The position numbers and the translations under genes were made by a program. A stretch of 64,000 bases of DNA from Candidatus Omnitrophota bacterium. GTDB taxonomy: Bacteria; Omnitrophota; Gorgyraeia; Zapsychrales; Fredricksoniimonadaceae. The notes beneath the pieces were generated by a model, which saw only the letters and a list, made by a program, of their open reading frames with translations, had not been told where the DNA came from and did no database searches. How positions within the stretch are numbered: the stretch's first letter is position 1; every line of letters begins with the position of its first letter. Below are positions 17,395 to 34,410 of this stretch, in pieces. The stretch lies in contig JAKFXC010000062.1 in the NCBI GenBank assembly GCA_021731625.1, forward strand, positions 4,479 to 68,478. The letters run 5' to 3'.

Positions 17395-17477
17395 TTTTTT
17401 CTTAATGCTGCATTCATTTCGGTTCACATAGAATAAAGGTCCAAGCATTTAAAATTAGTTAATTTAGGAGATGAATT

Positions 17478-17735
17478 ATGGCCGTTTTTAAGTCTATGGA
17501 CGGATCGCCTAAGGCCTTTCGCATCCTGCGTTTTTGTTATGTGGTTTTATCTTTGATTGCCGGATTGGACAAATTTTCTAATTCTTTGGTCAACTGGACC
17601 GCGTATTTGTCGCCGATCGTCAGCAGCAAGATGAATCCGTGTGCATTTATGAAGTTCGTGGGCGTCGTCGAAATCGCCTCCGGACTTTTGGCCATTGTCA
17701 ACCCCCGTAGTGCTGGTTATGTGATTGCCGCCTAG
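17478..17735 (+). CDS. DoxX-family membrane protein, interrupted by in-frame TAG at 17733-17735 (frame stays open to 17861)
   Basis: Two TM helices before the TAG. After it the frame continues LWGIILNLLTIPGYYD...LALANLARDHQHV without another stop for 41 codons, completing a typical ~127-aa DoxX. Confidence 0.5.
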   Translation: MAVFKSMDGSPKAFRILRFCYVVLSLIAGLDKFSNSLVNWTAYLSPIVSSKMNPCAFMKFVGVVEIASGLLAIVNPRSAGYVIAA

Positions 17736-17879
17736 CTTTGGGGGATCATCCTCAACCTTTTGACTATTCCCGGCTACTATGACGTCGCGGCGCGAGACTT
17801 TGCCTTGGCTCTGGGAGTGCTGGCCCTGGCCAATTTGGCCCGGGATCATCAACATGTTTAAATTGACTAAAGGGTCTAC

Positions 17880-19937: not shown

Positions 19938-19938
19938 C

Positions 19939-22713
19939 ATGAAAGTCCCAGTGGCAACCTACCGCCTGCAGCTCCATCACCAATTCAACTTTGCGGACGC
20001 CCAAAACATTGTCGACTATATTTCCGTTCTGGGGATTTCCGACATTTATGCCTCGCCCATTTTTAAGGCGGTGGGCGACAGCATCCACGGGTATGACATT
20101 GTGGACCCCACGCAAATTAATCCGCAGCTGGGAGGCAAGGACGGCTTCGCGTCGCTCATGAGCAAAGTCAAAGACAAGGGCCTGGGATGGGTGCAAGACA
20201 TTGTGCCTAATCATATGGCCTTTGACAGCAGCAACCGGCTGCTCATGGACATTTTTGAAAGCGGGCCGCGCTCTAAGTTTTACCAATTTTTTGATGTCCA
20301 ATGGGACCATCCCTATGAACATTTGCGCGGCAAAATGCTGACCCCCATTTTAGGGGACATGTACGGCCTTTGCCTGGATAAAAATGAAATCAAAATCTTT
20401 TTTGATGAGAATGGATTTAGTGTGCGGGTGTCGGCCCAAGTGTTGCCGCTCAAAATTGATGGGTATGCGAAAATTTTGACTGCCAATCTGCCGTTGCTGG
20501 AGCAAAACATCCAGCGCCAGGATGAACACTTTATACAGTTCTTGGAAGTGATCGAAAGCCTGAAGAATATTTCCGAACTCATCCCTTACGATGAACGGTA
20601 TCATCGCATTTCTCTGGCCAAGACCCGGCTGTGGAAACTGTATATGGGTAATGCGACCATTAAGAATTATATCGATGGGATCATCACCTCTCTAAACGGC
20701 ACCCCCGGCGACCCGGCGTCGCTGAACCGTTTGGATGAATTGCTCTCCGAGCAAGTTTTTCGCTTGTCGTTCTGGAAGGTGGGCAATGAGGAATTGAATT
20801 ATCGGCGGTTTTTTACCATCAACAGTCTGCTCAGTTTGAAGATGGAACGCAAAGAAGTCTTTGATCTGACCCATGAGCTCATCATGCAGCTGGTCAAGGC
20901 CGGAGACTTTACCGGACTCCGGGTGGACCATGTGGATGGTTTGTATGATCCTCCAGCCTATTTAACCCGCATCCGGCAGCGGGAAGAGGACATTTACATT
21001 GTGATTGAAAAAATCTTGGATATCCACGAACATTTGCCCGCTTGCATGCCGGTGCAGGGGACCACGGGTTATGATTTTTTAAACGTGGTCAACGGGCTTT
21101 TTGTCGACACTCACACGGAAAAAATATTTGACCGCACGTATACGGCCTTCACCGGTCTGCGAACCCCTTACCGGGACTTAGTCAGCGAGAAGAAAAGATT
21201 TTTTATGGGCAAACACATGGCCGGAGACATCGACAACCTGGCCCATCTGCTCAAACACATTTTAAACCGCAATCGCTACGGCAAAGACATGACCATGTAT
21301 GCACTCCGTCGGGCAATTGTGGAAGTCATGGCCCAGTTTCCGGTGTACCGGGCCTATATGTGCGAAGGCCAAGGCATCGAGGAGGGCAGAGCCCACATCA
21401 AGGAAGCGGTGGCGCGGGCCCAAAATTTGAATCCCGGACTGTTGCACGAATTGGCTTACATGGGGAAGGTTTTGCTTTTGGATTTTCCCGCCGAGGTGGG
21501 GGTCGAGGAAAAGGAAGAATATTACCATTTTACTAAGAAGTTCCAGCAGTATTCCGGGCCCTTGATGGCCAAAGCCGCGGAGGACACCACATTTTACATT
21601 TACAACCGTTTTATTTCGCTGAATGAAGTTGGCGGAGATCCATCGGTGTTCGGGATTTCACCGGAGGATTTTCACGAGTTCATGCAGGAGCGCCAACGCC
21701 GCTGGCCCCTGGCGATCAATGCCACTTCCACCCACGACACCAAGCGCGGCGAAGACGCGCGGGCCCGTTTAAATGTGCTGACTGAAATGCCGGAGGCCTG
21801 GGAGCACATGGTCCGGATGTGGAGCAAAATCAACAAAAAAAAGAAGCGGTCCGTCGGCGCTCTAAAAGTGCCGGATAAAAATGAGGAGTATTTTATTTAC
21901 CAAGCTCTGGTCGGGGCCTATCCCTTCGACCAGCGGGAACATGCTGCATTTGCCGTGCGCCTGAAAGATTATATGATCAAGTCCCTGCGGGAAGCCAAGG
22001 TGCATACGGCGTGGATCAACCCCAACACTGCGTATGAGGAGGGCTGCCTGTATTTTATTGATGCCTTGCTTCGTCCAGGGGCGAACAATGCATTTTTAAA
22101 ATCATTTCTGGAGTTCCATCAAAAGGTGGCCTTACCGGGCGTGGGCAACTCCTTGGCCCAGGTGCTCCTTAAAATCACCTGTCCGGGCCTGCCGGATTTT
22201 TATCAAGGCAGCGAGCTATGGGATCTGTCCTTTGTGGATCCGGACAACCGCCGGCCGGTCGACTATGAGCGCCGGATGGAATTGCTGGACAAGATTAAGG
22301 GTCAGACCGGCAATGCCGATTTTCTAAGCGACCTTATAAAGAATAAGGAAGACGGCCGCCTGAAATTTTGGTTTACCTATAAAATGTTGCAGTTTCGGCA
22401 GGTGCACAAAGAGCTGTTCCTCAAAGGGGACTACATGCCGTTGGCTGCCAAGGGCACCGGCCAGAAACACATATTGGGCTTTGCCCGCAAATTGGGGCAA
22501 ACCTGGGTCGTGATCGCTGTTCCACGATTTAGCACCCAAATGACAGACGGCTGGCAGGACACTGCCTTGGTTTTGCCCGAGGGCGCGCCCTCGCAATGGG
22601 AACATGCCTTAACCGGGGCATGCAGTCATGCCGCGGGAGAAATTCAATTGGTACAACTTCTTCAGGAATTCCCGGTGGTGGTGTTGTCAGCTAAGGAGGC
22701 GCCAAAGATGTAA
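19939..22713 (+). CDS. treY: Malto-oligosyltrehalose synthase
   Basis: N-terminal ATYRLQL...ISDIYASPIF..GYD..DP is the TreY signature; 924 aa. Confidence 0.85.
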   Translation: MKVPVATYRLQLHHQFNFADAQNIVDYISVLGISDIYASPIFKAVGDSIHGYDIVDPTQINPQLGGKDGFASLMSKVKDKGLGWVQDIVPNHMAFDSSNRLLMDIFESGPRSKFYQFFDVQWDHPYEHLRGKMLTPILGDMYGLCLDKNEIKIFFDENGFSVRVSAQVLPLKIDGYAKILTANLPLLEQNIQRQDEHFIQFLEVIESLKNISELIPYDERYHRISLAKTRLWKLYMGNATIKNYIDGIITSLNGTPGDPASLNRLDELLSEQVFRLSFWKVGNEELNYRRFFTINSLLSLKMERKEVFDLTHELIMQLVKAGDFTGLRVDHVDGLYDPPAYLTRIRQREEDIYIVIEKILDIHEHLPACMPVQGTTGYDFLNVVNGLFVDTHTEKIFDRTYTAFTGLRTPYRDLVSEKKRFFMGKHMAGDIDNLAHLLKHILNRNRYGKDMTMYALRRAIVEVMAQFPVYRAYMCEGQGIEEGRAHIKEAVARAQNLNPGLLHELAYMGKVLLLDFPAEVGVEEKEEYYHFTKKFQQYSGPLMAKAAEDTTFYIYNRFISLNEVGGDPSVFGISPEDFHEFMQERQRRWPLAINATSTHDTKRGEDARARLNVLTEMPEAWEHMVRMWSKINKKKKRSVGALKVPDKNEEYFIYQALVGAYPFDQREHAAFAVRLKDYMIKSLREAKVHTAWINPNTAYEEGCLYFIDALLRPGANNAFLKSFLEFHQKVALPGVGNSLAQVLLKITCPGLPDFYQGSELWDLSFVDPDNRRPVDYERRMELLDKIKGQTGNADFLSDLIKNKEDGRLKFWFTYKMLQFRQVHKELFLKGDYMPLAAKGTGQKHILGFARKLGQTWVVIAVPRFSTQMTDGWQDTALVLPEGAPSQWEHALTGACSHAAGEIQLVQLLQEFPVVVLSAKEAPKM

Positions 22714-22796
22714 GCAGTTTAATTTTAACTTCATCTTGTTTTAATTTTCATTTTGGTACAGTAGGTCAGCATTTTCATCCCTAAAGGAGAAACGCC

Positions 22797-23168
22797 ATGG
22801 GTAGACATAAGAATCGTTTTAATAACAACCAACCCAATTCGATTCAGCCGCTTGATCATATAGGCCGTGAACCTTCTTATTTTGACATTCAACCCCGCGC
22901 GTATGCACTCCATGAGCAAAAAGGCGGCACTGAGCTGGAGAACTGCTGGAAGCGGAAAGGTAGCGTAAGGAGGCAAGGCATGCTGCTCGTTGAGCGCAAC
23001 CTTCTCAATACATGTGTCATCCTCGTGGCTGGATTTTGCCTCCTGCAGGGGTGCCGGGAGCAGAAGGCAACGTCGGACCCCAAGACCCAGTTTTCTAATT
23101 TTGTGAATGAAGGCAGTTCACATCAGGAAGAAGCGCCGGTGAATACTTGGGTGAACGTGGCATTTTAA
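22797..23168 (+). CDS. Hypothetical protein; C-terminal half could be an independent small lipoprotein (start 22980, lipobox LLQGC)
   Basis: RBS aaaggag before 22797 and aaggagg before the internal ATG 22980; no recognisable domain. Confidence 0.3.
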   Translation: MGRHKNRFNNNQPNSIQPLDHIGREPSYFDIQPRAYALHEQKGGTELENCWKRKGSVRRQGMLLVERNLLNTCVILVAGFCLLQGCREQKATSDPKTQFSNFVNEGSSHQEEAPVNTWVNVAF

Positions 23169-23200
23169 TATTTAAGGTCATCTAAACGACAATAACACCA

Positions 23201-23449
23201 ATGAAAGGAGCACGTATGATTAACCGAGAAGGCATCAACGATTATACCCAAGCCATTGATCAGGGTGAGAAAAAAGTCAAACAAGCGGTTCAAGAGGCCG
23301 AGAAAAAATTCCGCCAGACCCAGGAGCAATTGTCCCAGTGGGCTTCTAAAGTCGACCATCAAGTGCATGAAAATCCATGGCCGGCGCTGGCCGGGGTTGC
23401 GGTGGGATTTCTCATGTTGGGTTTGATCATGGGCAGATCACGCGAATGA
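23201..23449 (+). CDS. DUF883 (ElaB/YqjD-like) membrane-anchored stress protein
   Basis: Coiled-coil N-terminus and C-terminal NPWPALAGVAVGFLMLGLIMGRS, the DUF883 hallmark. Confidence 0.65.
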   Translation: MKGARMINREGINDYTQAIDQGEKKVKQAVQEAEKKFRQTQEQLSQWASKVDHQVHENPWPALAGVAVGFLMLGLIMGRSRE

Positions 23450-23889
23450 AAAAACAACTCCTGACCACGGCGTTTTTTTTGCTGAGCGCGTTCTCCAAAA
23501 TGCGGGCGCGCACCTCACTCAAGGACATCGCTGGTCTTCGAATGAAACTGTTGTACCTCAAACTGATCAAGACCAGCCGCATGCTCTTTATCAGTTTTTT
23601 AGGGGTGGGGCTATGCCTGCTTTTTTTGTGTGCCGGTTTGGTCCTGGCGCATGTGGTCTTCTTTGCTTATATGCCCTGGAGCAATGAGGCCAAAATATGG
23701 GTAGGGTTTGCCATGTCCGCCATCTACGTCGGTGCGGCCGCATGGATCTTTAGCTATGTCTTTGATCAACACAAGTGGATAGCCATGTTTCAGGCTAATG
23801 GGCTGTTGGATAATATCGCCGGAGACATGCCCTATCCGCAGAACCATAAGAATCATAAAAGAGAACCGGTAGATAGTTCTGCCCTATGA
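23446..23889 (+). CDS. YqjE-like (phage-holin-3_6 superfamily) inner-membrane protein
   Basis: ATGA overlap with the DUF883 gene, mirroring E. coli yqjD-yqjE synteny; two long hydrophobic helices. Confidence 0.5.
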   Translation: MKKQLLTTAFFLLSAFSKMRARTSLKDIAGLRMKLLYLKLIKTSRMLFISFLGVGLCLLFLCAGLVLAHVVFFAYMPWSNEAKIWVGFAMSAIYVGAAAWIFSYVFDQHKWIAMFQANGLLDNIAGDMPYPQNHKNHKREPVDSSAL

Positions 23890-26237
23890 TCGGCAGCATA
23901 GAGGGCCTTATTCGATCAACCCGGCGGAGGCTCAATCGCAGCTATTGGGCCATTCGGCTGTTGGGGCTTTCTAAACTCGACCAGCCGATTCAGGCCCCCG
24001 GCCTGATCATGGTGCAGATTGACGGACTTTCCTTGACGCAGGTGCAAAACGCCATGCGTCAAGGAAATGTCCCTTTCTTAAGCCGCTTGCTTTCCCGCGA
24101 ATCCTACGTTCTGCACACTTTTTTTTCCGGCATTCCTTCCAATACCCCTGCGGTGCAAGCGGAAATTTTTTACGGCGTTAAGACCTGCGTGCCGTCATTT
24201 TATTTTATGGACCGGAGGTTGTGTCGTCCGGTGAAAATGCAGGATGCCGCTTATGTTGAACAATTTGAACAGAAGCTAAAGGAAAAGAATGCCGGGCTGC
24301 TCTCCGGCGGGAGTTCCTATAGCAATATTTTCACCGGTGGGGCTTCCGAAGCCCATTTTTGCTGGGCCCAATTAGGGTTCGGCGGTGTGTTGCACGCGGC
24401 CAACCCTTTGGTATTTCCCTTTTTATTTCTTTTATATATTGATATTTTTGTCCGCACGTTTGTTTTGCTCATCGTGGAATTCTTGATCGCTTTTTATGAA
24501 TGCATCCGGGGCACCCTGAAGGGCCGCTTGTTTTTTGAAGAGCTGCGCTTTGTCATGCTGCGGGTTTTGGTATGCATATTTCTGAGGGAACTGATCGTGG
24601 CCGGGGTCTGCATTGACATCATGCGGGGTTTACCGGTCATTCATTGTAATTTTCTGGGCTACGATGAGCAGGCCCATTGCCGGGGCCCATCGTCGCGTTT
24701 TGCCCACTGGGCTTTGCAAGGCATTGATGCTGCCATCAAACGCATTGACCACACCATGAAACAATCGCCTTACCGTGAATATGACCTCTGGGTGTACGGG
24801 GACCATGGCCAGGAAACCACCACCCCGTATTTTATCCGCTACGGCCGCACCATCGAAGAGGCGGTGCAGGAACTCTTTGGCAAGAATCTGGATCCGGTGG
24901 TGCGTCGCCGCAATTTGCGGCAGCACAATGCCGACGGACGGGCCGATTTATTGGTCAGTCGAAAAGACAAACCATTGCCCCGGGGGGAGCAGCCAGAGAT
25001 TTTAGTCACCGCCATGGGGCCTTTGGGGCAAATTTACGTGAAGAAAAAACTCAGTCAGGCAGAATTGGAATTTTTTGGCAATGAATTGGCGACTAAGCTG
25101 CATATCCCGCTGGTGGTGATCCGCCAAGGCCAAAAGCTCTTGGCGTACACCCCGCACGGGTCTTATACCTTGCCGGACCAAACCGCCTTAGTGTTTGGCG
25201 AGGATCATCCTTTTCTTGAGGACATTCAGGTCGATTTTATGACTGCATGTTTCCATCCGGATGCCGGCGAGTTCATTATTGCGGGGTGGAGCAAAGGCGA
25301 GTCGCCGATCAGCTTTCCTTTAGAGTATGGGGCCCATGCCGCCATGAGTGTTGAGGAAACCCGGGCTTTTGCCCTCATGCCGGTTGATGCCCCTTTAAAA
25401 TCCCGGTCTAAAAAATATCTCCGACCCCTGGATTTGCGGGACACCGCCCTGCGGTACCTTAATAAGGAAGTGATCGGGCCGGCAGCGGCGCCGGAGGAAG
25501 TGCCTGGGGTGCTGCGCCTCATGAGCTACAATGTGCACGGGTGCAAGGGCATGGATGGTTATCTGTCCACGGAACGCATCGCGCGGGTCATTGCCCGGCA
25601 CCGTCCTGATGTCATTGCCCTGCAGGAACTCGACGTCGGACGGGCCCGGTCCCAAGGCATGGACCAGGTCCAAAAGGTGGCCAAGTATCTCGAGATGAAG
25701 TATCATTTTCATCCTGTTCTCTGCCAGGAAGCCGAGCAATACGGCAATGCCATTTTAAGCCGGTACCCTGTGACCTTGATCAAAGTCGCGACCCTGCCCG
25801 GGCTTCATGATCAAGAACCTCGAGGGGCCATGTGGGTCCAAATAGAGTTTCAAAACATTGGTGTTCATGTGATTAACACCCATTTGAGTATTTGGCCGAG
25901 GGAACGGATGCTGCAGGTGAAAGCCCTTTTAAGCGAACAGTGGATAGGTCAGCACGACCATCGCACTCCTTTGGTTTTATGCGGAGATTTTAATGCCATG
26001 CCCGGATCATCTTCCTATAAACGGATTTGCCAAAAATTAAAGGATAGCCAGACCCTGCTGAACGGACATCAACCCTTCCGCACTTGGTTTGGTCGATACC
26101 CGGTGTCCCAGATCGACCACGTCTTTGTGAACCCTCAATTGAAGGTCCACGCCGCGTCTGTTCCCCACACCAGCCTCGATAAGGTGGCCTCGGACCACCT
26201 ACCGCTCATCGTCGACCTTAAGATGTATGTAAATTAA
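23886..26237 (+). CDS. Fusion phosphoesterase: N-terminal alkaline-phosphatase-like (type I phosphodiesterase/nucleotide pyrophosphatase) domain, internal TM segments, C-terminal endonuclease/exonuclease/phosphatase (EEP) domain
   Basis: AlkP-core motifs VQIDGLS, SGIPSNTP and VYGDHGQ. EEP motifs LRLMSYNVHG, IALQELD, VINTHLS, CGDFNAMPGS, DHVF, SDHLPL. Hydrophobic stretch at residues ~190-250. Confidence 0.65.
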   Translation: MIGSIEGLIRSTRRRLNRSYWAIRLLGLSKLDQPIQAPGLIMVQIDGLSLTQVQNAMRQGNVPFLSRLLSRESYVLHTFFSGIPSNTPAVQAEIFYGVKTCVPSFYFMDRRLCRPVKMQDAAYVEQFEQKLKEKNAGLLSGGSSYSNIFTGGASEAHFCWAQLGFGGVLHAANPLVFPFLFLLYIDIFVRTFVLLIVEFLIAFYECIRGTLKGRLFFEELRFVMLRVLVCIFLRELIVAGVCIDIMRGLPVIHCNFLGYDEQAHCRGPSSRFAHWALQGIDAAIKRIDHTMKQSPYREYDLWVYGDHGQETTTPYFIRYGRTIEEAVQELFGKNLDPVVRRRNLRQHNADGRADLLVSRKDKPLPRGEQPEILVTAMGPLGQIYVKKKLSQAELEFFGNELATKLHIPLVVIRQGQKLLAYTPHGSYTLPDQTALVFGEDHPFLEDIQVDFMTACFHPDAGEFIIAGWSKGESPISFPLEYGAHAAMSVEETRAFALMPVDAPLKSRSKKYLRPLDLRDTALRYLNKEVIGPAAAPEEVPGVLRLMSYNVHGCKGMDGYLSTERIARVIARHRPDVIALQELDVGRARSQGMDQVQKVAKYLEMKYHFHPVLCQEAEQYGNAILSRYPVTLIKVATLPGLHDQEPRGAMWVQIEFQNIGVHVINTHLSIWPRERMLQVKALLSEQWIGQHDHRTPLVLCGDFNAMPGSSSYKRICQKLKDSQTLLNGHQPFRTWFGRYPVSQIDHVFVNPQLKVHAASVPHTSLDKVASDHLPLIVDLKMYVN

Positions 26238-26331
26238 TCTTGTTTTCATGTTCTCTTAATGGTGGGATTGGTAAATTAATCCGCGTTTAGGAACGCAATC
26301 ACAGAGAAAACCAGCTAAAAAGGAGACTCAC

Positions 26332-27096
26332 ATGTTTAAAGACTTTCGCTTACTGTTTGCGGTAGGAGTCATGGCTTTATCGTTTGCCGCGTCCGCACGG
26401 GCGGCAGATACGGATGGTCGTATTGAATCCTCGTTTAAGAATTCATACGTCTATAAAACTTATTTGAGAGACGATCAGATTGATATCCATGTCAAACACG
26501 GCGTGGTGACATTGACTGGCACGGTGGATCAAGAAAATCATCGGGGCTTGGCCCAAGAAACGGCGGCGGGTTTACCGGGAGTACAACGGGTGGAAAATAC
26601 CCTGGAAGTTCGTGGGGGGAAAGTACCGGAGCAATCGGACGCTTGGTTGGCTATGAAGGTCAAAGCCGCATTGGTGTTTCACCGCAGTGTTAGCGGTTTA
26701 AGGACCCAGGTGGAAACCAAAGACGGTATAGTAACTTTGAGAGGCGAAGCGGAAAGTCAAGCTGAAAAAGACCTGGCCGCCGAATATGCCAAGGATGTCG
26801 AGGGAGTGAAATCCGTCCGAAACGACATGGTCATCGCCAAGAACGACAATCCTGACCAGATAGACAAACAAACATTTAAGGAAAAAATTGATGATGCATC
26901 CATCACCGCGCAAGTCAAGACAGCCTTGTTGTCGCATCGCTCAACCAGCGCCATCGGGACTAAAGTCGAGACCCGTGACGGGGTTGTGACGGTCAGCGGC
27001 AATGCCAAAAACCAGGCTGAGAAAGACCTAGTGACCAAACTGGTGACCGACATCAAAGGTGTGGATAGAGTCGTTAATAATATGAACGTAAGCTAA
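26332..27096 (+). CDS. BON-domain protein with three BON repeats (OsmY-like), signal peptide
   Basis: Repeated ...V.HGVVTLTG.V....K..A...A..V.GV..V.N.L.V pattern three times. Confidence 0.8.
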   Translation: MFKDFRLLFAVGVMALSFAASARAADTDGRIESSFKNSYVYKTYLRDDQIDIHVKHGVVTLTGTVDQENHRGLAQETAAGLPGVQRVENTLEVRGGKVPEQSDAWLAMKVKAALVFHRSVSGLRTQVETKDGIVTLRGEAESQAEKDLAAEYAKDVEGVKSVRNDMVIAKNDNPDQIDKQTFKEKIDDASITAQVKTALLSHRSTSAIGTKVETRDGVVTVSGNAKNQAEKDLVTKLVTDIKGVDRVVNNMNVS

Positions 27097-27113
27097 TCAA
27101 ACGGAGAACATCA

Positions 27114-27251
27114 ATGCGGAACTTATTTGTTAAGTTAGTCGCCGTGGCCTTCATTGCCTCGATCGTTGGGTGCAATACGATGAAGGGGGCTGGCCAAGAT
27201 ATGGAACAAACCGGGAAAAACATCAAGGAAACCGTGGAGCATAACGATTAA
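27114..27251 (+). CDS. Entericidin A/B family small lipoprotein (45 aa)
   Basis: MRNLFVKLVAVAFIASIVGCNTMKGAGQDMEQTGKNIKE matches Ecn (lipobox VGC, NT.KG.G.D...G); RBS ggag. Not in the ORF track because it is under 60 aa. Confidence 0.6.
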   Translation: MRNLFVKLVAVAFIASIVGCNTMKGAGQDMEQTGKNIKETVEHND

Positions 27252-27269
27252 CCAATCAAGGAGGTACTT

Positions 27270-27437
27270 ATGTTAAGTTGGTCCATTAGCTTTTTATTGA
27301 TTGCCATCGTGGCAGCGTTTTTTGGGTTCGGCGGAATTGCGGGTACGGCCACCGAAATCGCCAAAGCATTGTTTGTAGTCTTTTTGGTCCTTTTCTTTAT
27401 TTCTTTGCTTTTAGGTCGACGCGTCCCATCGGTGTAA
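27270..27437 (+). CDS. UPF0391/DUF1328 small membrane protein (55 aa)
   Basis: [49 protein letters not shown] is the canonical family sequence; RBS aaggagg. Confidence 0.6.
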
Positions 27438-27522
27438 CGTCGCTCTCAAGATAACCGCCCGGATAGGTGAGGACATTCGCCGCGTTTAGCGGCGGTGCCT
27501 TGCCAAGGCGGAAGGGGGAACT

Positions 27523-27879
27523 ATGAAGAAACTTAAGACGCAGAAAAGGTTTGACATCGAGCAACACGTGCAGAGTTTTGAGTCGGTGTCCCGGTTCGTC
27601 AGTGAAGGGAATCCTCTCACGGGCGAGGCCATTGAAAAGGCCCGGCAGGACGTTTATCAGGACTTGAAATTGATCGAAGACACCAAAGAAGCCATAAAGA
27701 AAGAGCCAGCTCTGGCCGAGGCCCTCCCGTATGTGGCAGTGACCGCGTCTGAAGGAGTGATCGTCCTGAAAGGCACCGTGGAATCCGAAGTCGAGAAAAA
27801 GTCGGTGGGCGAACAAGCCACCGGAGTGGCTGGTTACGGAAAAGTCCATAACGATCTCCAGGTGTCCGAAGAAAAATGA
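27523..27879 (+). CDS. Small BON-domain protein
   Basis: VTASEGVIVLKGTVESEVEKKSVGEQATGVAGYGKVHNDLQV is a BON repeat. Confidence 0.55.
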   Translation: MKKLKTQKRFDIEQHVQSFESVSRFVSEGNPLTGEAIEKARQDVYQDLKLIEDTKEAIKKEPALAEALPYVAVTASEGVIVLKGTVESEVEKKSVGEQATGVAGYGKVHNDLQVSEEK

Positions 27880-30125
27880 TATGGAACCGGTGGTCTCTCA
27901 TGGGGTTTTTCTTGACCCGCATGGCAAAGGCCCAAGGATTTTTGGATCCCCGGGTGCTTTTTGGTCAGTTGCAACGTTTTGCCCGCCCCTCGGAGGTTTG
28001 GGTGCCGTCGGAACTCTTACGTTCCGGCATGACACTGCAAGCCCGGGGGGTGTTAAACAGCCAGGCCATCCAGCACAACCTCGATTGGATATGGCCGTTC
28101 TGGGTCTATCATCAGTTCAATCCCCACGATCCGGCATTTCTGCCGCGGGCTTTTAATCTTTCCCACATCAATTTGACGCATCGCAATTGGACGGCGCTGG
28201 GTGTTCCGGATTATGCGGATTATCCTTTAGTAGACCCGCGTGGATTAGTGACTCCTTTTTTTGACGGATGGTCTCTAGATGCCTGGATCATTGCGGAGAA
28301 CGGAGCATCGCTCATCCCAGCCCAAATGCCTTATGTCCATCAGCAATTGAATTTGGACGGGTTAAGGGTGCTCACCTCATCAACGTCTGAAGGCATGTAC
28401 TTGCGCTCCCAGGCGGAAGTCATTGTGGACCAATCCATTCCCAAATGCGTGGTGTGCTATCAAGCCCTCACGTCGAGCCAGGCCTGGCTGTTGGTGTGCG
28501 TGCGGCCGTTTAATACCGAGGGGGTGAGTTTTGTCCACGACCTGGACCGTTTAAGCGACGAGGAAGGATGGCTGGTCAATGGCGAACATAATGTCCGCCT
28601 GCGCCTGCCCCCGCAAAGTTACGCGTTTTCCAACTATCATGATGGAGACATTGCCCGGCCCGGCCCTTCGCCTCGGGAGCAGGTGGCCATTGCCACAGAC
28701 AAAATCCATTGCCCGGTGGGCATGGCCACGGCTGCCGCGCTTTATGCTTTGTCCCCGCATCAAAATTTTGAAGTGACGGTGGAAGTGCCATTGTCCAAGG
28801 CGCCGGTCAGGACCACCCTGTGGAAAGAGCATTTGCATAATTATTGCCGTATAGAAGTCCCTGATCAATCTTTTCAGTGTTTGTACGAAACAGCCTTGCG
28901 CACCTTGATTTTGCATTCGCCCGGCGATGTTTATCCAGGGCCATTCACCTATAAGCGTTTTTGGTTTCGCGACGCGGCTTTTATCCTGGATGCCATGCTG
29001 GCCACAGGACTCATGAAGAACATGGAAGCCATTGTGCATGCGTTTCCCAAACGGCAAACCCCTTTAGGGTATTTTAAATCGCAGGACGGCGAATGGGATT
29101 CGAATGGCCAGGCCTTGTGGATCATCCACCGCTACAGCACCATGGCCCCGGCGGTCATTGGTCCGGATTTGTTAAAAAGTGTCGCCGCCGGTGCCGCCTG
29201 GATCAGACGCAAGCGCTTGAGCGGTACTACCACCGGCGCGCATGCCGGCCTCATGCCGGCGGGTTTCAGTGCCGAACATTTGGGTCCAAGTGATTTTTAC
29301 TATTGGGATGATTTTTGGTCGGTGGCGGGTTTGCGTGCGGCAGCGGCCTTGATGGTTTCTCATCGAGAAGTTGCCGAGGGATTTGCCGCCGAGGCGACCG
29401 AACTCACCCGGGCCATTGAGCAAAGCCTGGAACATGTCCGTCAACGGCAGTGCCGAGGCATCCCGGCGTCCCCTTACCGGCGGATGGACGGTGGTGCGGT
29501 GGGGTCCTTGGCAGCCAGCTATCCGTTGCGGCTGCTGCCTCCCGATGATGAGCGGATGAAATGCACTGTGGACTTTCTGTTGGAAAAATATTTGTTCGAC
29601 GGCGTTTATTACCATGAAGTCAGCCATTCCGGTATTAACGCGTATTTGAGTTTGCACTTAGCCCAGGTGTTGTTGCGGGCCGGTGATCCGAGGTTTTTTG
29701 AGATTGTCCGCAAAGTCGCGGAATGGGCCAGCCCCACAGGGCAATGGCCCGAGGCGATCCACCCGCAAACCAAGGGTGGATGTATGGGCGACGGACAGCA
29801 TGTGTGGGCGGCCGCCGAATGGGTTTTGATGCTGCGCAATATGTTTGTGCGTGAGGAAAAAGACACTTTGATTTTATGTTCCGGCCTGCCAGCGGAATGG
29901 CTGGAGAAAGGACAGATCTTGTTTTTGGGACCCACCCGGACCTCATTCGGCAAAATATCTGTGACTGTGCATACTAAGGACCGGTTGCGGGTTGCATGGG
30001 CAGCCGAGTGGCACGCGGCCGCGCCGACCATTGAAGTGCATTTGCCGGGAGGACCCAAAGGCGTGGCTGAGCCGGGGATGTCGGCAATGGAATTCGGGAG
30101 TCGGACCGCAGGAGGAGTGCGATGA
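27876..30125 (+). CDS. Six-hairpin (alpha/alpha)6 glycoside hydrolase-like protein (GDE_C/GH15-related)
   Basis: The FTYKRFWFRDAAFILDAM motif (W.RD catalytic region of the GDE/GH15 clan) and a large helical C-domain; N-domain unknown. Confidence 0.5.
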   Translation: MIWNRWSLMGFFLTRMAKAQGFLDPRVLFGQLQRFARPSEVWVPSELLRSGMTLQARGVLNSQAIQHNLDWIWPFWVYHQFNPHDPAFLPRAFNLSHINLTHRNWTALGVPDYADYPLVDPRGLVTPFFDGWSLDAWIIAENGASLIPAQMPYVHQQLNLDGLRVLTSSTSEGMYLRSQAEVIVDQSIPKCVVCYQALTSSQAWLLVCVRPFNTEGVSFVHDLDRLSDEEGWLVNGEHNVRLRLPPQSYAFSNYHDGDIARPGPSPREQVAIATDKIHCPVGMATAAALYALSPHQNFEVTVEVPLSKAPVRTTLWKEHLHNYCRIEVPDQSFQCLYETALRTLILHSPGDVYPGPFTYKRFWFRDAAFILDAMLATGLMKNMEAIVHAFPKRQTPLGYFKSQDGEWDSNGQALWIIHRYSTMAPAVIGPDLLKSVAAGAAWIRRKRLSGTTTGAHAGLMPAGFSAEHLGPSDFYYWDDFWSVAGLRAAAALMVSHREVAEGFAAEATELTRAIEQSLEHVRQRQCRGIPASPYRRMDGGAVGSLAASYPLRLLPPDDERMKCTVDFLLEKYLFDGVYYHEVSHSGINAYLSLHLAQVLLRAGDPRFFEIVRKVAEWASPTGQWPEAIHPQTKGGCMGDGQHVWAAAEWVLMLRNMFVREEKDTLILCSGLPAEWLEKGQILFLGPTRTSFGKISVTVHTKDRLRVAWAAEWHAAAPTIEVHLPGGPKGVAEPGMSAMEFGSRTAGGVR

Positions 30126-31399
30126 ACATTTTGATGATGACCAACACGTATAAGCCGCTCTTGGGGGGTTTGGAAAAATCCGTGGAATATTTTAGCGAAG
30201 AATTTCGTCAAAGGGGGCACCGCGTGGTCATCGTTACTCCGGAATATGAGGGCGCCCCTGCTTCGGAAAAGGACATCATCCGCATTCCAGCGGTGCAAAG
30301 ATTCAACGGCTCGGATTTTTCTGTGCAACTTCCCATCCCCGGCGGACTGGCCGAAGCCCTGGGGAGTTTTAAGCCACACATCGTGCATTCGCATCATCCG
30401 TTCTTTATTGGCGACACGGCCCTGCGGGTGGCGGCCCGGTACAATGTCCCGCTGGTATTTACCCATCACAGTTTATATGAAGAGAACGTGCATTACCTGC
30501 CCGGCAACGAGCAAGCCCTGAAACAATTTGTCATTGCGCTTTCAACCGGTTATGCCAACCTCGCCGACCAAGTGTTTGCACCCAGCATAAGTGTGGCGAA
30601 ATTGATCAAAGAACGAGGGGTGGAGACTCCCATCGAGGTCATCCCCACCGGTTTGCGGGTCAATGAATTTTCCCGCGGAGCCGGCAGGGCGTTCCGTAAA
30701 AAGCAGGGTATCCCGGCGGACGCCTTTGTGGTGGGGCATTTGGGCCGTTTGGCCCCGGAGAAGAATATGGAATTCTTGACGCGGGCGGTGACGTTGTTTG
30801 TGCGTAAGCATCCCCAGGCGTATTTTTTGCTGCTCGGTAGCGGTCCGTCGGAAGCTGTCATCAAGGAGATCGCTGCCAAGGAGGGGGTCAGTGAGCGTTT
30901 GCGCATGGCAGGCACGGTGGAGGGGAAAGAAAAGACCGCGGCCTACCACGCCATGGATGTGTTTGCTTTTGCGTCTCAAAGTGAGACCCAGGGACTGGTC
31001 TTGACCGAAGCGTTCGCCGCCAAGGTGCCGATCGTGGCCGTGGATGCTTGCGGGGTCAGGGACGTGGTAGAAGACAAAATCAACGGCCGTCTGCTTGAGA
31101 AAGAGGATGCTGATGCTTTTGTTGCCGCCCTGGATTGGATCAAGGAACGTTCCGGCCCGGAACGGACCAAAATCCGGCAAGCTTGCCGCAAAACCGCCGG
31201 TCAGTTTCAAATGGACAAGATCGTCGAGAACGCTTTAGCAGCGTATACGTCTTTATCGGTGCGGCATGGTTTCATACGTCGGGCTGTTGGTGACAGCAAG
31301 TGGAGTAAAACCCGGCGTTTGATCCAAGCCGAATTTGGTTTGGTGAGAAATCTCACTAAGGCGGCCCGCCGCTTAGTGTCCGTTACCTTGCAAGGATAA
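30122..31399 (+). CDS. Glycosyltransferase family 4 (GT-B, Glycos_transf_1)
   Basis: N-terminal GGLEKSV..F and C-terminal E(x7)E region (FASQSETQGLVLTEAFAAKVPIVAVDACGVRDVV). Confidence 0.8.
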   Translation: MNILMMTNTYKPLLGGLEKSVEYFSEEFRQRGHRVVIVTPEYEGAPASEKDIIRIPAVQRFNGSDFSVQLPIPGGLAEALGSFKPHIVHSHHPFFIGDTALRVAARYNVPLVFTHHSLYEENVHYLPGNEQALKQFVIALSTGYANLADQVFAPSISVAKLIKERGVETPIEVIPTGLRVNEFSRGAGRAFRKKQGIPADAFVVGHLGRLAPEKNMEFLTRAVTLFVRKHPQAYFLLLGSGPSEAVIKEIAAKEGVSERLRMAGTVEGKEKTAAYHAMDVFAFASQSETQGLVLTEAFAAKVPIVAVDACGVRDVVEDKINGRLLEKEDADAFVAALDWIKERSGPERTKIRQACRKTAGQFQMDKIVENALAAYTSLSVRHGFIRRAVGDSKWSKTRRLIQAEFGLVRNLTKAARRLVSVTLQG

Positions 31400-31402
31400 C
31401 AT

Positions 31403-33046
31403 ATGAAAGCATCGGATCTTTTTGTGAAGTGTTTGGAAAATGAAGGGGTAAAATACATCTTTGGCATCCCGGGGGAAGAGACCGAAGACCTGCTGTTTTC
31501 TCTACAGGCATCGTCCATTAAATTCATTCCCACCCGCCACGAACAGGGCGCGGCTTTTATGGCAGATATGTGGGGACGTTTGAGCGGGAAGGCCGGTGTG
31601 TGCTTATCCACGTTAGGGCCCGGCGCAACCAATTTAGTCACCGGCGTGGCGGATGCGAATTTGGACAAGAGTCCGGTGGTGGCCATCTCCGCCCAGGCCG
31701 GATTGAATCGGTTGTACAAAGAGAGTCATCAATATGTCAACCTCGTCGAGCTGTTTCGTCCCATCACCAAATGGAACACCACCATTGCCAGCCCGGACGT
31801 GATTCCTGAAGTTGTGCGCAAAGCTTTTAAAGTGGCGGAAAGCGAAAAACCAGGGGCCACCCACATTGAATTTCCCGAGGACATCGCCGGGATGGAAACC
31901 ACCGGCAAACCCATCCGCGCTACTCGAGTTCGACGGCCTGACCCGGATCAACACGCCTTGAAGGAAGCGGTGGACTTTCTGAAGGCGGCCAAATATCCTT
32001 TGATCATCGCCGGCAACGGGGCCGTGCGCAAGCTTGCCTCCGAAGAGTTGAGCGCGTTTGTGCGGCGGTACAACATTCCAGTGGTGCACACGTTTATGGG
32101 CCAGGGGGCTGTGGCCGACAGTCAGCCGCAACTCCTTTTTACCATTGGCTTCGGATTCCGCGAGATTGTCATGGAAGCGGTGGACAAAGCGGATGTGGTG
32201 GTCACCGTCGGGTATGACATTGCGGAATATGCCCCTGATCAATGGAACCCTAAGAAGGACAAGAAAATCATCCATGTGGATTTCACTTCCGCGGAAGTGT
32301 ACGCCCATTACCAGCCCTGCGTCGAGATCGTGGCGGACATTCCAGCCACTTTAAGGGAACTCAACCAGGCCCTGGCAAAGGACGGCCACCGCTTTGATGG
32401 TCAATGGTATGCGCCGGTGCGCCAACGCATCATTGAGGACATTGCGGGATACGCGCCTCATGGGGAAACCTTCACGGTGCCAGGGGTCATTCATGTGCTC
32501 AATGAGCTCATGCACGGCGACGACCTTTTGATCAGCGACGTGGGCACCCATAAAATTTGGGTGGCCAGGAATTTTTCCGCCAAATGCCCCAACGGCTGCA
32601 TCATTTCCAACGGCTTGGCCAGCATGGGGATTGCTTTGCCCGGCGCTGTCGCGGCAGCGTTGTATGAGCCGCAGCGCCGGATTGTGGCGGTCATGGGCGA
32701 CGGAGGATTTATGATGAACGCCCAGGAATTGGAAACCGCCAAACGCCTAAAGGTTGCCTTTACCGCCATCATTTTCAACGACAATGACTACGGCTTGATC
32801 AGCTGGAAGCAGCAGATGAGCCGCGGCCGCAGCACCGGTACTCAGTTGACCAATCCCGATTTTCCTAAATTTGTGCAAAGCTTTGGCATCCAATCTTATC
32901 GACCCCGCACAGTTTCTGAAATGAAGACCCAGTTGACCAAGGCGCTGAGCGACCGGGAGCTGTGCGTTTTTGAAGTTCCCATCGACAACAGCGTCAATGC
33001 CGAGCTCATTCAAAAACTTAAAGCCATTGTCTCGAGGAAGAAATGA
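31403..33046 (+). CDS. Thiamine-pyrophosphate enzyme of the acetolactate synthase large-subunit family (catabolic AlsS-like)
   Basis: TPP_enzyme N, M and C domains with the GDGGF...NN TPP-binding motif; 547 aa and no small regulatory subunit nearby. Confidence 0.75.
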   Translation: MKASDLFVKCLENEGVKYIFGIPGEETEDLLFSLQASSIKFIPTRHEQGAAFMADMWGRLSGKAGVCLSTLGPGATNLVTGVADANLDKSPVVAISAQAGLNRLYKESHQYVNLVELFRPITKWNTTIASPDVIPEVVRKAFKVAESEKPGATHIEFPEDIAGMETTGKPIRATRVRRPDPDQHALKEAVDFLKAAKYPLIIAGNGAVRKLASEELSAFVRRYNIPVVHTFMGQGAVADSQPQLLFTIGFGFREIVMEAVDKADVVVTVGYDIAEYAPDQWNPKKDKKIIHVDFTSAEVYAHYQPCVEIVADIPATLRELNQALAKDGHRFDGQWYAPVRQRIIEDIAGYAPHGETFTVPGVIHVLNELMHGDDLLISDVGTHKIWVARNFSAKCPNGCIISNGLASMGIALPGAVAAALYEPQRRIVAVMGDGGFMMNAQELETAKRLKVAFTAIIFNDNDYGLISWKQQMSRGRSTGTQLTNPDFPKFVQSFGIQSYRPRTVSEMKTQLTKALSDRELCVFEVPIDNSVNAELIQKLKAIVSRKK

Positions 33047-34410
33047 AACTCACATCCATCAATCCTGCCACCGGGCAGATCATCCAATCCTACGACGAGC
33101 ACACCCAGGAGGGTCTTGAAAACATCGTGCACCAGGCCAAATCTGCCTTCCTGATTTGGCACCGCCTTCCGTTTAAGGAGCGGGCCGTGAAAATGAAGGC
33201 CATGGCCGCCGCCTTACAAAAGAACCGGGCCTTGCTGGCCCAACTCATGGCGAATGAGATGGGCAAACCCTTAAAACAGGGGGAGGGAGAAATTGACAAA
33301 TGCGCCTGGGTGTGTGAATTTTACGCCGACACTGCGGCGGCGTTTTTGGCCGATGAGCCCGTTGCCACCGACGCCCAAAAAAGTTATGTGCATTTTTCAC
33401 CCTTGGGCACGGTCCTGGCCGTGATGCCCTGGAATTATCCCTTTTGGCAGGTGTACCGTTGCGCGGCCCCGATTCTAATGGCAGGCAATGCCTTGGTCCT
33501 CAAACACGCGTCCAATGTTTCGGGCGTGGCCTTGGCCATCGAGAACCTCTTTAAATTGTGCGGCTTTCCCGACGGATTAATGCGCGCGGTGCTGGTCAAA
33601 AGTGAACGCGTGGAAAAACTCATCGAGCATCCGCTGGTGCATGCGGTGACGGTCACCGGCAGTGTGCAGGCCGGCAAAGCCGTGGCCGCGAAAGCCGGAG
33701 CCATGATCAAGAAGACGGTGCTGGAACTTGGCGGCAGCGACGCCTACATCGTGCTGCCTGATGCGGACCTCGAAGCGGCCGCCCAAACCTGTGCGGCCTC
33801 GCGACTCATTAATGCGGGGCAAAGCTGCGTGTCGGCCAAACGTTTCATTGTCCCGAATGCCATTTTAAGCAAATTTGAAGTCCTATTCGTCGAGCAAATG
33901 CGGCAGCAGGTCATGGGCCCGCCGACGAAAGAGGGGGTCACCTTAGGTCCGCTGGCCCGCCATGATTTAAGAGATCAGTTGCATCGCCAGGTGCAGGAAT
34001 CTTTTAAAGCGGGAGCGCGGCTGTTGCTCGGGGGATCTATCCCCGACGGCCCCGGGGCTTTTTATCCGCCCACCGTGCTCTCCGACGTCAAACCCGGGAT
34101 GCCGGCCTATCATGACGAATTCTTTGGTCCGGTGGCGTCGATCATTCCGGTCACGGATGACAAAGAAGCCATTCGGGTGGCCAATGACACGGTCTTCGGC
34201 CTGGGTGCTGCGGTATTCACCCGCGACGTGGAGCGCGCGGAACACATCGCCGCGCATGAACTGGAAGCGGGATGCTGTTTTGTGAACACCGCGGTCAAAT
34301 CTGACCCTCGCCTGCCCTTTGGCGGGATCAAGGAATCCGGGTATGGACGCGAGTTGTCCGGTTTCGGCATCCGTGAATTCATCAACATTAAGACCGTCTA
34401 TATTCAATAA
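33043..34410 (+). CDS. NAD(P)+-dependent aldehyde dehydrogenase (succinate-semialdehyde dehydrogenase-like)
   Basis: ALDH motifs PWNYPFWQ, GSVQAGK, ELGGSDA and the catalytic Cys region QSCVSAKR; 455 aa. Confidence 0.85.
   Translation: MKLTSINPATGQIIQSYDEHTQEGLENIVHQAKSAFLIWHRLPFKERAVKMKAMAAALQKNRALLAQLMANEMGKPLKQGEGEIDKCAWVCEFYADTAAAFLADEPVATDAQKSYVHFSPLGTVLAVMPWNYPFWQVYRCAAPILMAGNALVLKHASNVSGVALAIENLFKLCGFPDGLMRAVLVKSERVEKLIEHPLVHAVTVTGSVQAGKAVAAKAGAMIKKTVLELGGSDAYIVLPDADLEAAAQTCAASRLINAGQSCVSAKRFIVPNAILSKFEVLFVEQMRQQVMGPPTKEGVTLGPLARHDLRDQLHRQVQESFKAGARLLLGGSIPDGPGAFYPPTVLSDVKPGMPAYHDEFFGPVASIIPVTDDKEAIRVANDTVFGLGAAVFTRDVERAEHIAAHELEAGCCFVNTAVKSDPRLPFGGIKESGYGRELSGFGIREFINIKTVYIQ

Follow-up and report, generated by a model that had tools for sequence, protein, structure and literature searches.

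A widespread polypeptide uniting NPP-type and EEP phosphoesterase domains, conserved beside a glycosyltransferase and a candidate for membrane-lipid remodelling

PlcP is a single-domain enzyme of the metallophosphoesterase fold and, to our knowledge, the one enzyme type for which diacylglycerol generation and the exchange of phospholipid for glycolipid are known outside a few model bacterial groups. Phospho-head groups are transferred from phospholipids by LtaS, EptA and OpgB, and PGAP2IP/CWH43 has a role in GPI lipid remodelling. The PlcP-Agt operon for phospholipid-to-glycolipid remodelling has been described in Sinorhizobium, SAR11, Phaeobacter and Pseudomonas, and its clusters carry putative Pho boxes (PMC4796936).

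The gene described here lies in a 64,000-nucleotide stretch of a Candidatus Omnitrophota bacterium (GenBank GCA_021731625.1, contig JAKFXC010000062.1), hereafter the window. Its product is laid out as follows.

23886..26237, + strand: whole gene, an open reading frame for a predicted 783-aa NPP-type/hairpin/EEP bifunctional phosphoesterase
23886..23975, + strand: N-terminal basic amphipathic helices, residues 1-30 (model helices 2-15 and 18-26)
23994..24404, + strand: NPP-type core, first half, with metal ligand D46 (VQIDGLS) and nucleophile T87 (PSNTP)
24405..24626, + strand: hydrophobic helical hairpin inside the NPP core, residues 174-247 (hydropathy and model)
24627..25475, + strand: NPP-type core, second half, with D260/H264 (GYDEQAH), D306/H307 (GDHGQ) and H484
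25506..26234, + strand: EEP domain, residues 541-783, with N549, E581, H666, D701/N703, D744 and D770/H771

The first-pass annotation of this DNA read the gene as two different phosphoesterase folds in one polypeptide, and this reading stands: both profile matches lie above cutoff, and the catalytic residues of both halves are identical in all 80 homologues over which conservation was counted. Judged from these signatures, the polypeptide contains two complete phosphoesterases that are apparently catalytically competent. The same combination, sought elsewhere, recurs in more than 120 full-length homologues (46-64% identity), and relatives of the gene occur in the genomes of at least 571 species from more than ten phyla, including Omnitrophota, Desulfobacterota, Nitrospirota, Nitrospinota, and Gamma- and Alphaproteobacteria. 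Because the fusion is real and conserved, neither a single catalytic domain with a non-catalytic partner nor a mis-assembled fusion, the two alternatives the annotation had raised against itself, holds. A degenerate domain is ruled out by the invariance of both catalytic sets, and a mis-assembly or chimera by the homologues, the breadth of species and the smooth GC content along the gene. The family's sole database name is "endonuclease/exonuclease/phosphatase family protein". Full-text literature searches found no paper on the NPP-hairpin-EEP architecture or its operon, and neither the lipocone paper nor the Desulfovibrio phosphate-limitation paper mentions them. The architecture, which the annotation had called unusual, is thus undescribed yet common. 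A tblastn search of a plasmid collection returned only three distant Streptomyces matches (23-25% identity) without useful annotation.

The N-terminal half has the core alpha/beta fold of the alkaline phosphatase superfamily, NPP type, and carries, in the canonical order, the Thr nucleophile and the six Asp/His residues that bind the two metals. D46, T87, D260, H264, D306, H307 and H484 are identical in 80 of 80 homologues; H484 is assigned as a ligand by position only. The PF01663 match is marginal in the protein itself (25.0 bits against a cutoff of 23, with only residues 253-320 aligned) and reaches 29-42 bits in homologues. Searched against the PDB, the family profile matches Xac NPP (E 2.7e-4), aligning D260/H264 and D306/H307 with the DxxGH and DHG motifs of that enzyme and D46 with its DG motif. 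Asn111 of Xac NPP, which we take to be the transition-state Asn following the nucleophile helix, has no obvious counterpart: a hand count from T87/G97, made without superposition, lands on M108/D109, D109 being present in 69 of 80 homologues and replaced by E, N or H in the remainder, and an invariant N255 lies elsewhere in the sequence than expected for this residue. Residues 334-370, in the second half of the core, form a variable insert that is disordered in the model (pLDDT <50).

The hydrophobic segments noted in the first-pass annotation do form two helices, but these lie within the NPP domain and do not separate it from the EEP domain as had been proposed. Their Kyte-Doolittle peaks are 2.44 and 2.31, and the long helices of the model span residues 185-211 and 216-247 around a polar tip (205-221). 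Hydrophobic positions interchange among L, I, V and F, and R190, E198, E219, R226, R234, E235, D244 and R247 are kept in 77-80 of 80 homologues. Six residues of the second helix are charged, an unusual number for a transmembrane helix. Residues 1-30 contain neither a signal peptide nor a transmembrane segment; R18, W21 and L28 are invariant among homologues.

The C-terminal half has the four-layer alpha/beta sandwich of the EEP fold and matches PF03372 over its whole profile (positions 1-225 of 225, residues 546-771, 105.7 bits against a cutoff of 24.5). N549, E581, H666, D701, N703, D744, D770 and H771 are identical in 80 of 80 homologues. Its closest structures are uncharacterised proteins. 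Compared with the neutral sphingomyelinase/phospholipase-C branch (human nSMase1 8j2f, nSMase2 5uvg and Streptomyces SMase C 7cne), the domain is not closer to sphingomyelinases, since TDP2 and nocturnin score equally well; structural matches to TDP2, CNOT6L and AP endonucleases are also good. Among more specific profiles, the YbhP-type model NF003842 aligns with the entire EEP domain at model positions 30-257 of 259 (E 8.7e-11), with 41.7 bits, far short of its equivalog cutoff of 144. PF23226, the C-terminal EEP domain of PGAP2IP/CWH43, scores 31.9 bits against a gathering score of 27 with only part of the profile covered, and exonuclease III models match partially (47 bits against a cutoff of 99).

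The gene is embedded in a run of same-strand genes.

23201..23449, + strand: ElaB/YqjD-like 82-aa tail-anchored stress protein, upstream (NCBIfam ElaB, E 4.8e-4)
23446..23889, + strand: 147-aa membrane protein, translationally coupled to the phosphoesterase gene (ATGA overlap at both ends)
26332..27096, + strand: triple-BON-domain protein, OsmY-like (PF04972, E 4.5e-49, three stretches)
27523..27879, + strand: single-BON-domain protein (PF04972, E 2.4e-10), its stop overlapping the U750 start
27876..30125, + strand: U750, 749 aa, beta-sandwich plus (alpha/alpha)6 barrel like GH15/GH65/GH94 (fold search)
30122..31399, + strand: GT4 glycosyltransferase partner, 425 aa (PF00534 and PF13439, E ~1e-34)
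31403..34410, + strand: acetolactate-synthase-like TPP enzyme and NADP succinate-semialdehyde-dehydrogenase-like gene (Pfam, NCBIfam)

The ATG of the phosphoesterase gene overlaps the stop of the 147-aa gene by 4 bp, and the ATG of the latter is in turn overlapped by the stop of the ElaB-like gene. The 147-aa protein has no Pfam match; its cluster ('Mem170') lies directly upstream of the phosphoesterase gene in nine loci of the closest lineage, and relatives of the ElaB-like gene (cluster c23) occur in seven related loci. The TPP-enzyme and dehydrogenase-like companions are lineage-specific, being found in nine and seven related loci, mostly of Omnitrophota type. With TreZ, GDE, GlgX, TreY and GH15 genes also nearby in the window, the flanking genes are of general-stress or osmotic type, and the stress neighbourhood that had been described is borne out by TreY/TreZ/GlgX and by the ElaB-like and BON genes. 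A promoter and terminator scan of 22600-35100 gave counts not above those of shuffled sequence and did not set the operon boundaries.

The canonical order is DedA/VTT, U750, GT4 and then the phosphoesterase gene. Among 80 loci, the GT4 gene adjoins the phosphoesterase gene on the same strand in 58, and U750 stands on that strand beside both in 55; in the window, two BON genes sit between the phosphoesterase gene and the U750-GT4 pair. This conserved operon context is a new result. Elsewhere, the operon is repeatedly flanked by Hsp20, DUF892-like, ElaB-like and BON-MscS genes, and a CDP-alcohol phosphatidyltransferase or an Aas-like acyltransferase is an occasional neighbour. PADLOC returned no match for the phosphoesterase, U750, GT4 or the 147-aa protein, on which ground a role as a defence system is ruled out.

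U750 belongs to a family of about 5000 database matches, in which all homologues listed carry the name 'hypothetical'; the window protein and its counterpart in a Rhodospirillales locus share 49% identity. The first 100 residues of U750 are conserved, although disordered. It has no Pfam or NCBIfam match, its profile finds only glucoamylase in the PDB (E 0.94), and hhalign against the GH15 protein of the window gives a probability of 1.5%, with the WPEAIHPxT region aligned to the GH15 catalytic-base region. The model (pLDDT 77) has Foldseek matches to glucodextranase, glucoamylase and GH116, to cellobiose, kojibiose and glucosylglycerol phosphorylases, and to the GH94 domain of cyclic glucan synthase. 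For this protein the fold search was informative and the sequence-level searches were not.

The best NCBIfam match of the GT4 protein is alpha-monoglucosyldiacylglycerol synthase, over the full length; a diacylglycerol acceptor is not established, because the score (125 bits) falls far below the equivalog cutoff of 400. GlcNAc-PG synthase, MshA and BgsA come next, Corynebacterium-type GlgA is also matched, and weaker matches include TuaC, WcaI and PglJ-type enzymes. In some species GT4, NPP and EEP form a single chain of 1211-1237 aa that retains the segment of residues 1-30 as a linker and has no intervening transmembrane segment, which argues that all its catalytic domains are cytoplasmic; we infer that those of the protein in the window also face the cytoplasm. 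Forms of the protein that lack the EEP domain occur as well and appear to be genuine. At locus L087 a convergent OsmC gene lies 11 bp beyond the EEP-less gene, and tblastn found no EEP remnant at L086 or L087. The EEP step would thus be dispensable in some lineages.

The protein probably remodels membrane lipids, given that its gene set pairs it with a lipid-type GT4, with an enzyme of a sugar-cleaving type and with a protein of the lipid-flippase type. The two folds with their intact catalytic residues, the inserted hairpin, the operon and the fusions are established. We tentatively propose, at a little short of an even chance, that the gene encodes the cytoplasm-facing, membrane-inserted, phospholipid-cleaving component of a four-gene lipid module. 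The hairpin in the NPP core would anchor the protein at or within the inner membrane, where the two metal-dependent sites would jointly remove the phosphorylated head group of a glycerophospholipid by two successive reactions. These could be a phospholipase-C-type cut to diacylglycerol and a phospho-alcohol and then hydrolysis of a phosphomonoester or diester, or a D-type cut followed by dephosphorylation of phosphatidate. Diacylglycerol would pass to the adjacent, sometimes fused, GT4 to yield an alpha-glycosyl-diacylglycerol-type glycolipid, whose glycosyl head group U750 might trim or turn over and which DedA might redistribute across the bilayer. Judging by the neighbouring genes, the likely trigger is stress of a general, osmotic or stationary-phase kind. 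This trigger, the substrate class and how NPP and EEP share the work are hypothetical. Of the lipid, teichoic-acid or nucleic-acid roles suggested in the first-pass annotation, the lipid role is favoured by GT4, DedA/VTT and the occasional CDP-alcohol phosphatidyltransferase or Aas-like context, but there is no sign of teichoic- or nucleic-acid processing.

Several observations sit awkwardly with a lipid module. U750 folds like the soluble glycoside hydrolases and phosphorylases, and its place in a lipid pathway is ad hoc. Also awkward are the charges in the second hairpin helix, the intervening BON genes and adjoining trehalose genes in the window, and an EEP domain that TDP2 and nocturnin match as well as sphingomyelinases do and that some lineages lack.

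A different chemistry is also conceivable, in which Thr87 would take a phospho-alcohol, such as glycerophosphate or phosphoethanolamine, covalently from a phospholipid and hand it to a glycoside or glycolipid of GT4 and U750, giving a phosphoglycolipid or substituted glucan and released diacylglycerol, with EEP trimming or recycling. The alkaline-phosphatase-superfamily fold, the Thr nucleophile and the membrane element are consistent with such a transferase, as are the tight coupling or fusion to GT4, a GH94/GH15-like partner that recalls cyclic glucan synthase, and the production of diacylglycerol from PG by MdoB in E. coli (PMC4796936). In LtaS, EptA and OpgB a sulfatase-type domain (PF00884) follows an N-terminal multi-TM domain and faces outside, whereas the present protein has no PF00884 match, carries its hairpin inside the catalytic domain and, to judge from the GT4 fusions, is cytoplasmic. 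We regard a transferase as unlikely. We find it unlikely, too, that the genes serve a soluble stress solute, with GT4 making a phosphorylated glycoside by a reaction of the sucrose-phosphate, MshA or maltose-1-phosphate type, NPP and EEP dephosphorylating it, U750 hydrolysing or phosphorolysing it when stress ends, and the hairpin acting only as a tether or oligomerisation element. The trehalose, glucan, BON and ElaB-like genes of the window, the stress genes that recur beside the operon, the resemblance of U750 to glucosylglycerol and kojibiose phosphorylases and glucoamylase, and the MshA and GlgA matches of GT4 all point that way. Such a pathway nevertheless does not account for DedA/VTT, for the strict conservation of the hydrophobic hairpin, for the CDP-alcohol phosphatidyltransferase and Aas-like neighbours or for the need for two phosphoesterase sites, and the canonical operon of other phyla lacks trehalose genes.

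NPP enzymes cleave pyrophosphate bonds, which, with the DedA-family gene and the weaker TuaC, WcaI and PglJ-type matches, would suit a polyprenyl-phosphate-linked glycan route: GT4 would act on an undecaprenyl-(pyro)phosphate-linked sugar, NPP and EEP would split the pyrophosphate or phosphodiester bond, freeing the carrier or returning it for reuse, and DedA would flip undecaprenyl phosphate. This route is improbable, as neither an initiating phosphoglycosyl transferase nor Wzx/Wzy nor an ABC exporter is a recurrent feature of the 80 loci, and the best full-length GT4 matches are enzymes with diacylglycerol and PG acceptors. Highly improbable is nucleic-acid or nucleotide processing at the membrane (for DNA scavenging, for turnover of signalling nucleotides or as a defence effector, for example) by an EEP nuclease and an NPP nucleotide pyrophosphatase/phosphodiesterase. 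The partial exonuclease III matches, the TDP2, CNOT6L and AP endonuclease structures and the identity of the closest solved NPP as a nucleotide pyrophosphatase are in its favour. The exonuclease III scores are nonetheless far under cutoff, a non-specific nuclease would be harmful at the probable cytoplasmic site, the conserved partners are GT4, a GH-like protein and DedA, and genes for nucleic-acid functions, transport or defence are not recurrent neighbours, in keeping with the PADLOC result.

Returning to the lipid module, its broadest form is possible but doubtful: an unrecognised four-gene system of many phyla, U750 being a new GH15/65/94-like family, would use a polypeptide of two unrelated metallo-phosphoesterase folds to strip phospholipid head groups on the cytoplasmic side and channel diacylglycerol directly to a glycolipid synthase, with general or osmotic stress rather than Pho as its control. 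If this is true, the protein would be the first NPP-type enzyme that is both intracellular and membrane-inserted, the module would perform the PlcP-Agt task by a second, non-homologous route, and U750, without a Pfam match, would gain its first functional handle. Lipid remodelling would give four uncharacterised families a directly testable function at once, and a solute or head-group-transfer reading would still mean a new stress pathway. Cultured hosts exist in Rheinheimera (R. pacifica), Arsukibacterium (A. ikkense) and Congregibacter variabilis.

Set against described systems, the NPP half is only 11-18% identical to Xanthomonas NPP (2gsn/7mw8), the alkaline sphingomyelinase ENPP7 (5udy) and ENPP6 (5ege), and differs from that family in the 74-residue hydrophobic helical hairpin inserted before the DxxxH strand, in its fusion to an EEP domain and in its probable cytoplasmic location, known NPPs being secreted or ecto-enzymes. 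E. coli YbhP (24% pairwise identity to the EEP domain, E 4e-13) is likewise an EEP protein whose gene accompanies those of a phospholipid-synthesis enzyme and a putative lipid translocase (ybhP-clsB-ybhN), but it is a stand-alone protein of 253 aa and unknown function whose partners are ClsB and a PplT-domain protein rather than GT4, U750 and DedA. PGAP2IP/CWH43 also joins an EEP domain to a membrane region and also belongs to a glycolipid context; this eukaryotic protein has a multi-pass membrane domain and lacks an NPP domain. The nearest parallel in logic is PlcP-Agt, in which a phosphoesterase gene again lies directly beside a GT4-type glycosyltransferase gene and a head-group-removing enzyme feeds diacylglycerol to a glycolipid synthase, as we propose here. 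Pfam finds only the EEP and NPP-type domains and no PlcP-type domain in our protein, so the likeness is one of functional analogy and not homology. Nor does the analogy extend to regulation, since a crude consensus scan of the DNA preceding the operon in 20 proteobacterial loci finds the Pho box CTGTCATAWAWCTGTCAY with 5 or more mismatches at best, which is no improvement on shuffled sequence; other forms of phosphate control are compatible with this result. Unlike PlcP-Agt, the present module adds U750 and DedA and brings two phosphoesterase domains to the task.

The focal open reading frame (window positions 23886-26237, + strand) is real and encodes a product of 783 residues, in which all nine motifs quoted in the first-pass annotation occur at the expected residues. 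Residues 546-771 match the complete EEP profile of Pfam (E 3.8e-30), and the match to PF01663 (type I phosphodiesterase / nucleotide pyrophosphatase) lies barely above its cutoff (25.0 bits against 23). Comparisons with NCBIfam and PDB sequences likewise show EEP clearly and NPP/PhnA only faintly. A profile built from residues 1-530 matched the Xanthomonas NPP at E 2.7e-4, placing GYDEQAH on the DxxGH metal motif, DHGQ on DHG, and IDGL on IDGL. The NPP set (D46, T87, D260, H264, D306, H307, and H484) and the EEP set (N549, E581, H666, D701, N703, D744, D770, and H771) are each identical in 80 of 80 species-level homologues. Because both sets are invariant, the counter-case raised with the original proposal of a fusion, namely that only one domain is catalytic, can be set aside. 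With the defining features of both families tested and found, the focal protein belongs to two superfamilies, EEP and NPP-type alkaline phosphatase.

The hydrophobic stretches noted earlier are present (Kyte-Doolittle peaks of 2.44 at residues 179-197 and 2.31 at 227-245) and do interrupt the NPP core; contrary to the first-pass annotation, the predicted model does not place them between the two catalytic domains. Instead, two long antiparallel helices (residues 185-211 and 216-247) sit inside the NPP core, directly ahead of the strand bearing D260. Hydrophobic positions of this hairpin exchange L, I, V, and F without constraint across the 80 homologues, as on lipid-exposed faces, the tip (residues 205-221) is polar, and R190, E198, E219, R226, R234, E235, D244, and R247 are kept in 77-80 of the 80. 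Matching depths in the antiparallel hairpin suggest the predicted ion pairs R190-E235 and E198-R226. On this model, the hairpin would be either truly transmembrane or else buried or oligomerizing. No signal peptide was found in the sequence.

The same domain combination, sought elsewhere as the first-pass annotation proposed, occurs in many phyla. Among 1465 matches to the whole protein, the best 120 are full-length, share 46-64% identity, and carry the same Pfam pair; the sole name given to any listed homologue is "endonuclease/exonuclease/phosphatase family protein". At least 571 relatives were confirmed when a single genome of each species was scanned, with hosts including Omnitrophota, Desulfobacterota, Nitrospinota, Nitrospirota, Gamma- and Alphaproteobacteria, Sumerlaeota, and Elusimicrobia, and cultured carriers including Rheinheimera, Arsukibacterium ikkense, and Congregibacter variabilis. 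The closest relatives among the matches listed come from Omnitrophota (50-62% identity) or from MAGs labelled "Planctomycetales". An exhaustive HMMER search with focal residues 1-530 (E<=1e-30) gave 487 clusters at 50% identity, in four length classes.

Length classes of proteins related to focal residues 1-530
NPP + EEP: about 800 aa, the majority class
NPP only: 510-590 aa
GT4 + NPP: 960-990 aa
GT4 + NPP + EEP: 1210-1240 aa

The fusions to GT4, a glycosyltransferase, were confirmed by Pfam and comprise natural GT4-NPP-EEP triple fusions (P0248 and P0249, 1211-1237 aa) and GT4-NPP proteins without an EEP domain (P0250 and P0265). Two further NPP-hairpin proteins lack the EEP domain (L086, 6001-7674, 557 aa; L087, 210-1928, 572 aa). 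These EEP-less forms appear genuine: 11 bp after one of them comes a convergent OsmC gene, and tblastn found no EEP remnant near either. The EEP domain is therefore an add-on to a core formed by the NPP-hairpin module. Together with the gene context below, these results point directly to a metallo-phosphoesterase that has two sites and a hydrophobic hairpin conserved among homologues, and that is coupled genetically, and sometimes physically, to a GT4.

The conserved gene context is the main new result. Open reading frames were called in 80 non-redundant loci and the window and clustered by BLASTP; calling was crude in the related loci, the longest frame being taken, and in some high-GC loci antisense artefacts (cluster c6, for example) displaced GT4. 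In at least 58 loci the focal gene has a same-strand GT4 gene (~430 aa) as its neighbour, U750, a partner of ~755 aa, adjoins GT4 in at least 55, and a 257-aa VTT/DedA protein lies immediately upstream of U750 in at least 29, all minima because contig ends cut off many loci. The order DedA, U750, GT4, focal gene is canonical and recurs across phyla, and in L045, L067, L077, and L080 an enlarged focal gene directly follows U750. In the window lineage the pieces are rearranged yet linked, and at several junctions a start overlaps the preceding stop by 4 bp; the order is ElaB-like, 147-aa membrane protein, focal gene, BON, BON, U750, GT4, TPP enzyme, aldehyde dehydrogenase. Genes of general-stress type (Hsp20, DUF892-like, ElaB-like, BON, and BON-MscS) recur in the flanks; a CDP-alcohol phosphatidyltransferase (best, weak match archaetidylinositol-phosphate synthase) lies near the module in 7 loci and an Aas-like acyl-ACP synthetase/acyltransferase in 5.

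Features surrounding the focal gene
13542-22713, + strand, directly upstream: complete glycogen-to-trehalose set
within it, + strand: TreZ-like (alpha-amylase + CBM48 + DUF3459)
within it, + strand: GDE-type amylo-alpha-1,6-glucosidase
within it, + strand: GlgX/isoamylase
within it, + strand: TreY (TIGR02401, 920 bits)
23201-23889, + strand: ElaB/YqjD-like 82-aa protein and 147-aa membrane protein, then the focal gene, with two ATGA stop/start overlaps
26332-27096 and 27523-27879, + strand: two BON-domain (OsmY-like) genes, between the focal gene and U750/GT4
27876-30125, + strand: U750, 749 aa, of a very large family
31403-34410, + strand: acetolactate-synthase-like TPP enzyme (NF006187, 695 bits) and NADP succinate-semialdehyde-dehydrogenase-like gene
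34980-36602: GH15 enzyme, downstream of the focal gene

The ElaB-like and 147-aa pair, the latter without a Pfam match, also precedes the focal gene in its closest (Omnitrophota-type) relatives. The second BON gene and the start of U750 share 4 bp; the TPP enzyme and dehydrogenase genes follow GT4 with ends overlapping or abutting, and in 7-9 related loci they again come after GT4 or the focal gene. Farther off lie a MASE1-PAS histidine kinase and OmpR-type two-component pair (37892-43110) and very long frames of 827, 1546, 523, and 895 aa (46227-57489). Across positions 1-64000, nearly all frames of at least 200 aa are on the + strand, most minus-strand frames just overlapping longer + strand ones; no tRNA genes were found, and promoter and terminator scans were uninformative.

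The best NCBIfam match of the window GT4 (30122-31399) is, over its full length, alpha-monoglucosyldiacylglycerol synthase, followed by N-acetylglucosaminyl-phosphatidylglycerol synthase, MshA, and BgsA; its PDB relatives are BshA, MshA, and PimA/PimB. All NCBIfam scores fall far under the equivalog cutoffs, so the label suggested by sequence stops at a "lipid-acceptor-like GT4". U750 matches no Pfam or NCBIfam model, and its 4963 matches are, where listed, all named "hypothetical"; the window copy is 49% identical to its counterpart in a Rhodospirillales locus. Its model (pLDDT 77) has three parts: a beta-sandwich, an (alpha/alpha)6 barrel, and, at the C terminus, a beta domain. It resembles glucodextranase and glucoamylase of family GH15; cellobiose phosphorylase of GH94, as well as the GH94 domain of cyclic glucan synthase; kojibiose phosphorylase and glucosylglycerol phosphorylase of GH65; and GH116. 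The first ~100 residues of U750, highly conserved yet modelled at pLDDT <50, may form a partner-binding region.

GT4 enzymes draw on cytoplasmic nucleotide sugars. Given this, and since GT4 is fused ahead of the NPP core with no hydrophobic segment found between them in the fusion proteins, both catalytic domains of the focal protein are probably cytoplasmic, and the hairpin probably lies within or against the inner membrane. The favoured reading, held tentatively, is that the protein could there strip phospholipid head groups to supply GT4 with diacylglycerol. Against such head-group removal count the failure to find a Pho box upstream of the operon in 20 proteobacterial loci, a GT4 acceptor that is only putative, the ad hoc role that it assigns to U750, the high charge of the second hairpin helix, and an EEP domain that could be placed in no subfamily. 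That the protein instead transfers head groups is possible but unlikely, and service in a soluble stress-solute pathway is unlikely as well. We consider a polyprenyl-linked glycan route quite improbable, and processing of nucleic acids or nucleotides would be a very surprising function.

Among known systems, PlcP-Agt would be the analogue of head-group removal; the focal protein was rejected as a PlcP homologue, belonging instead to the EEP and NPP-type superfamilies. It was also rejected as a sulfatase-type head-group transferase, and is not assignable to the sphingomyelinase branch of EEP. Its catalytic folds are ordinary. Full-text searching found no literature on the NPP-hairpin-EEP architecture or the DedA-U750-GT4 operon, and the intradomain hairpin, the NPP-EEP combination, a presumptively intracellular NPP, and the four-gene module appear to be undescribed. 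In E. coli K-12 (L085, 821542-824497), the EEP protein YbhP, still given as of unknown function in a 2022 preprint, shares an operon of overlapping genes with cardiolipin synthase B and YbhN, a flippase-like protein. This may represent a simpler relative of the NPP-EEP module arrangement.
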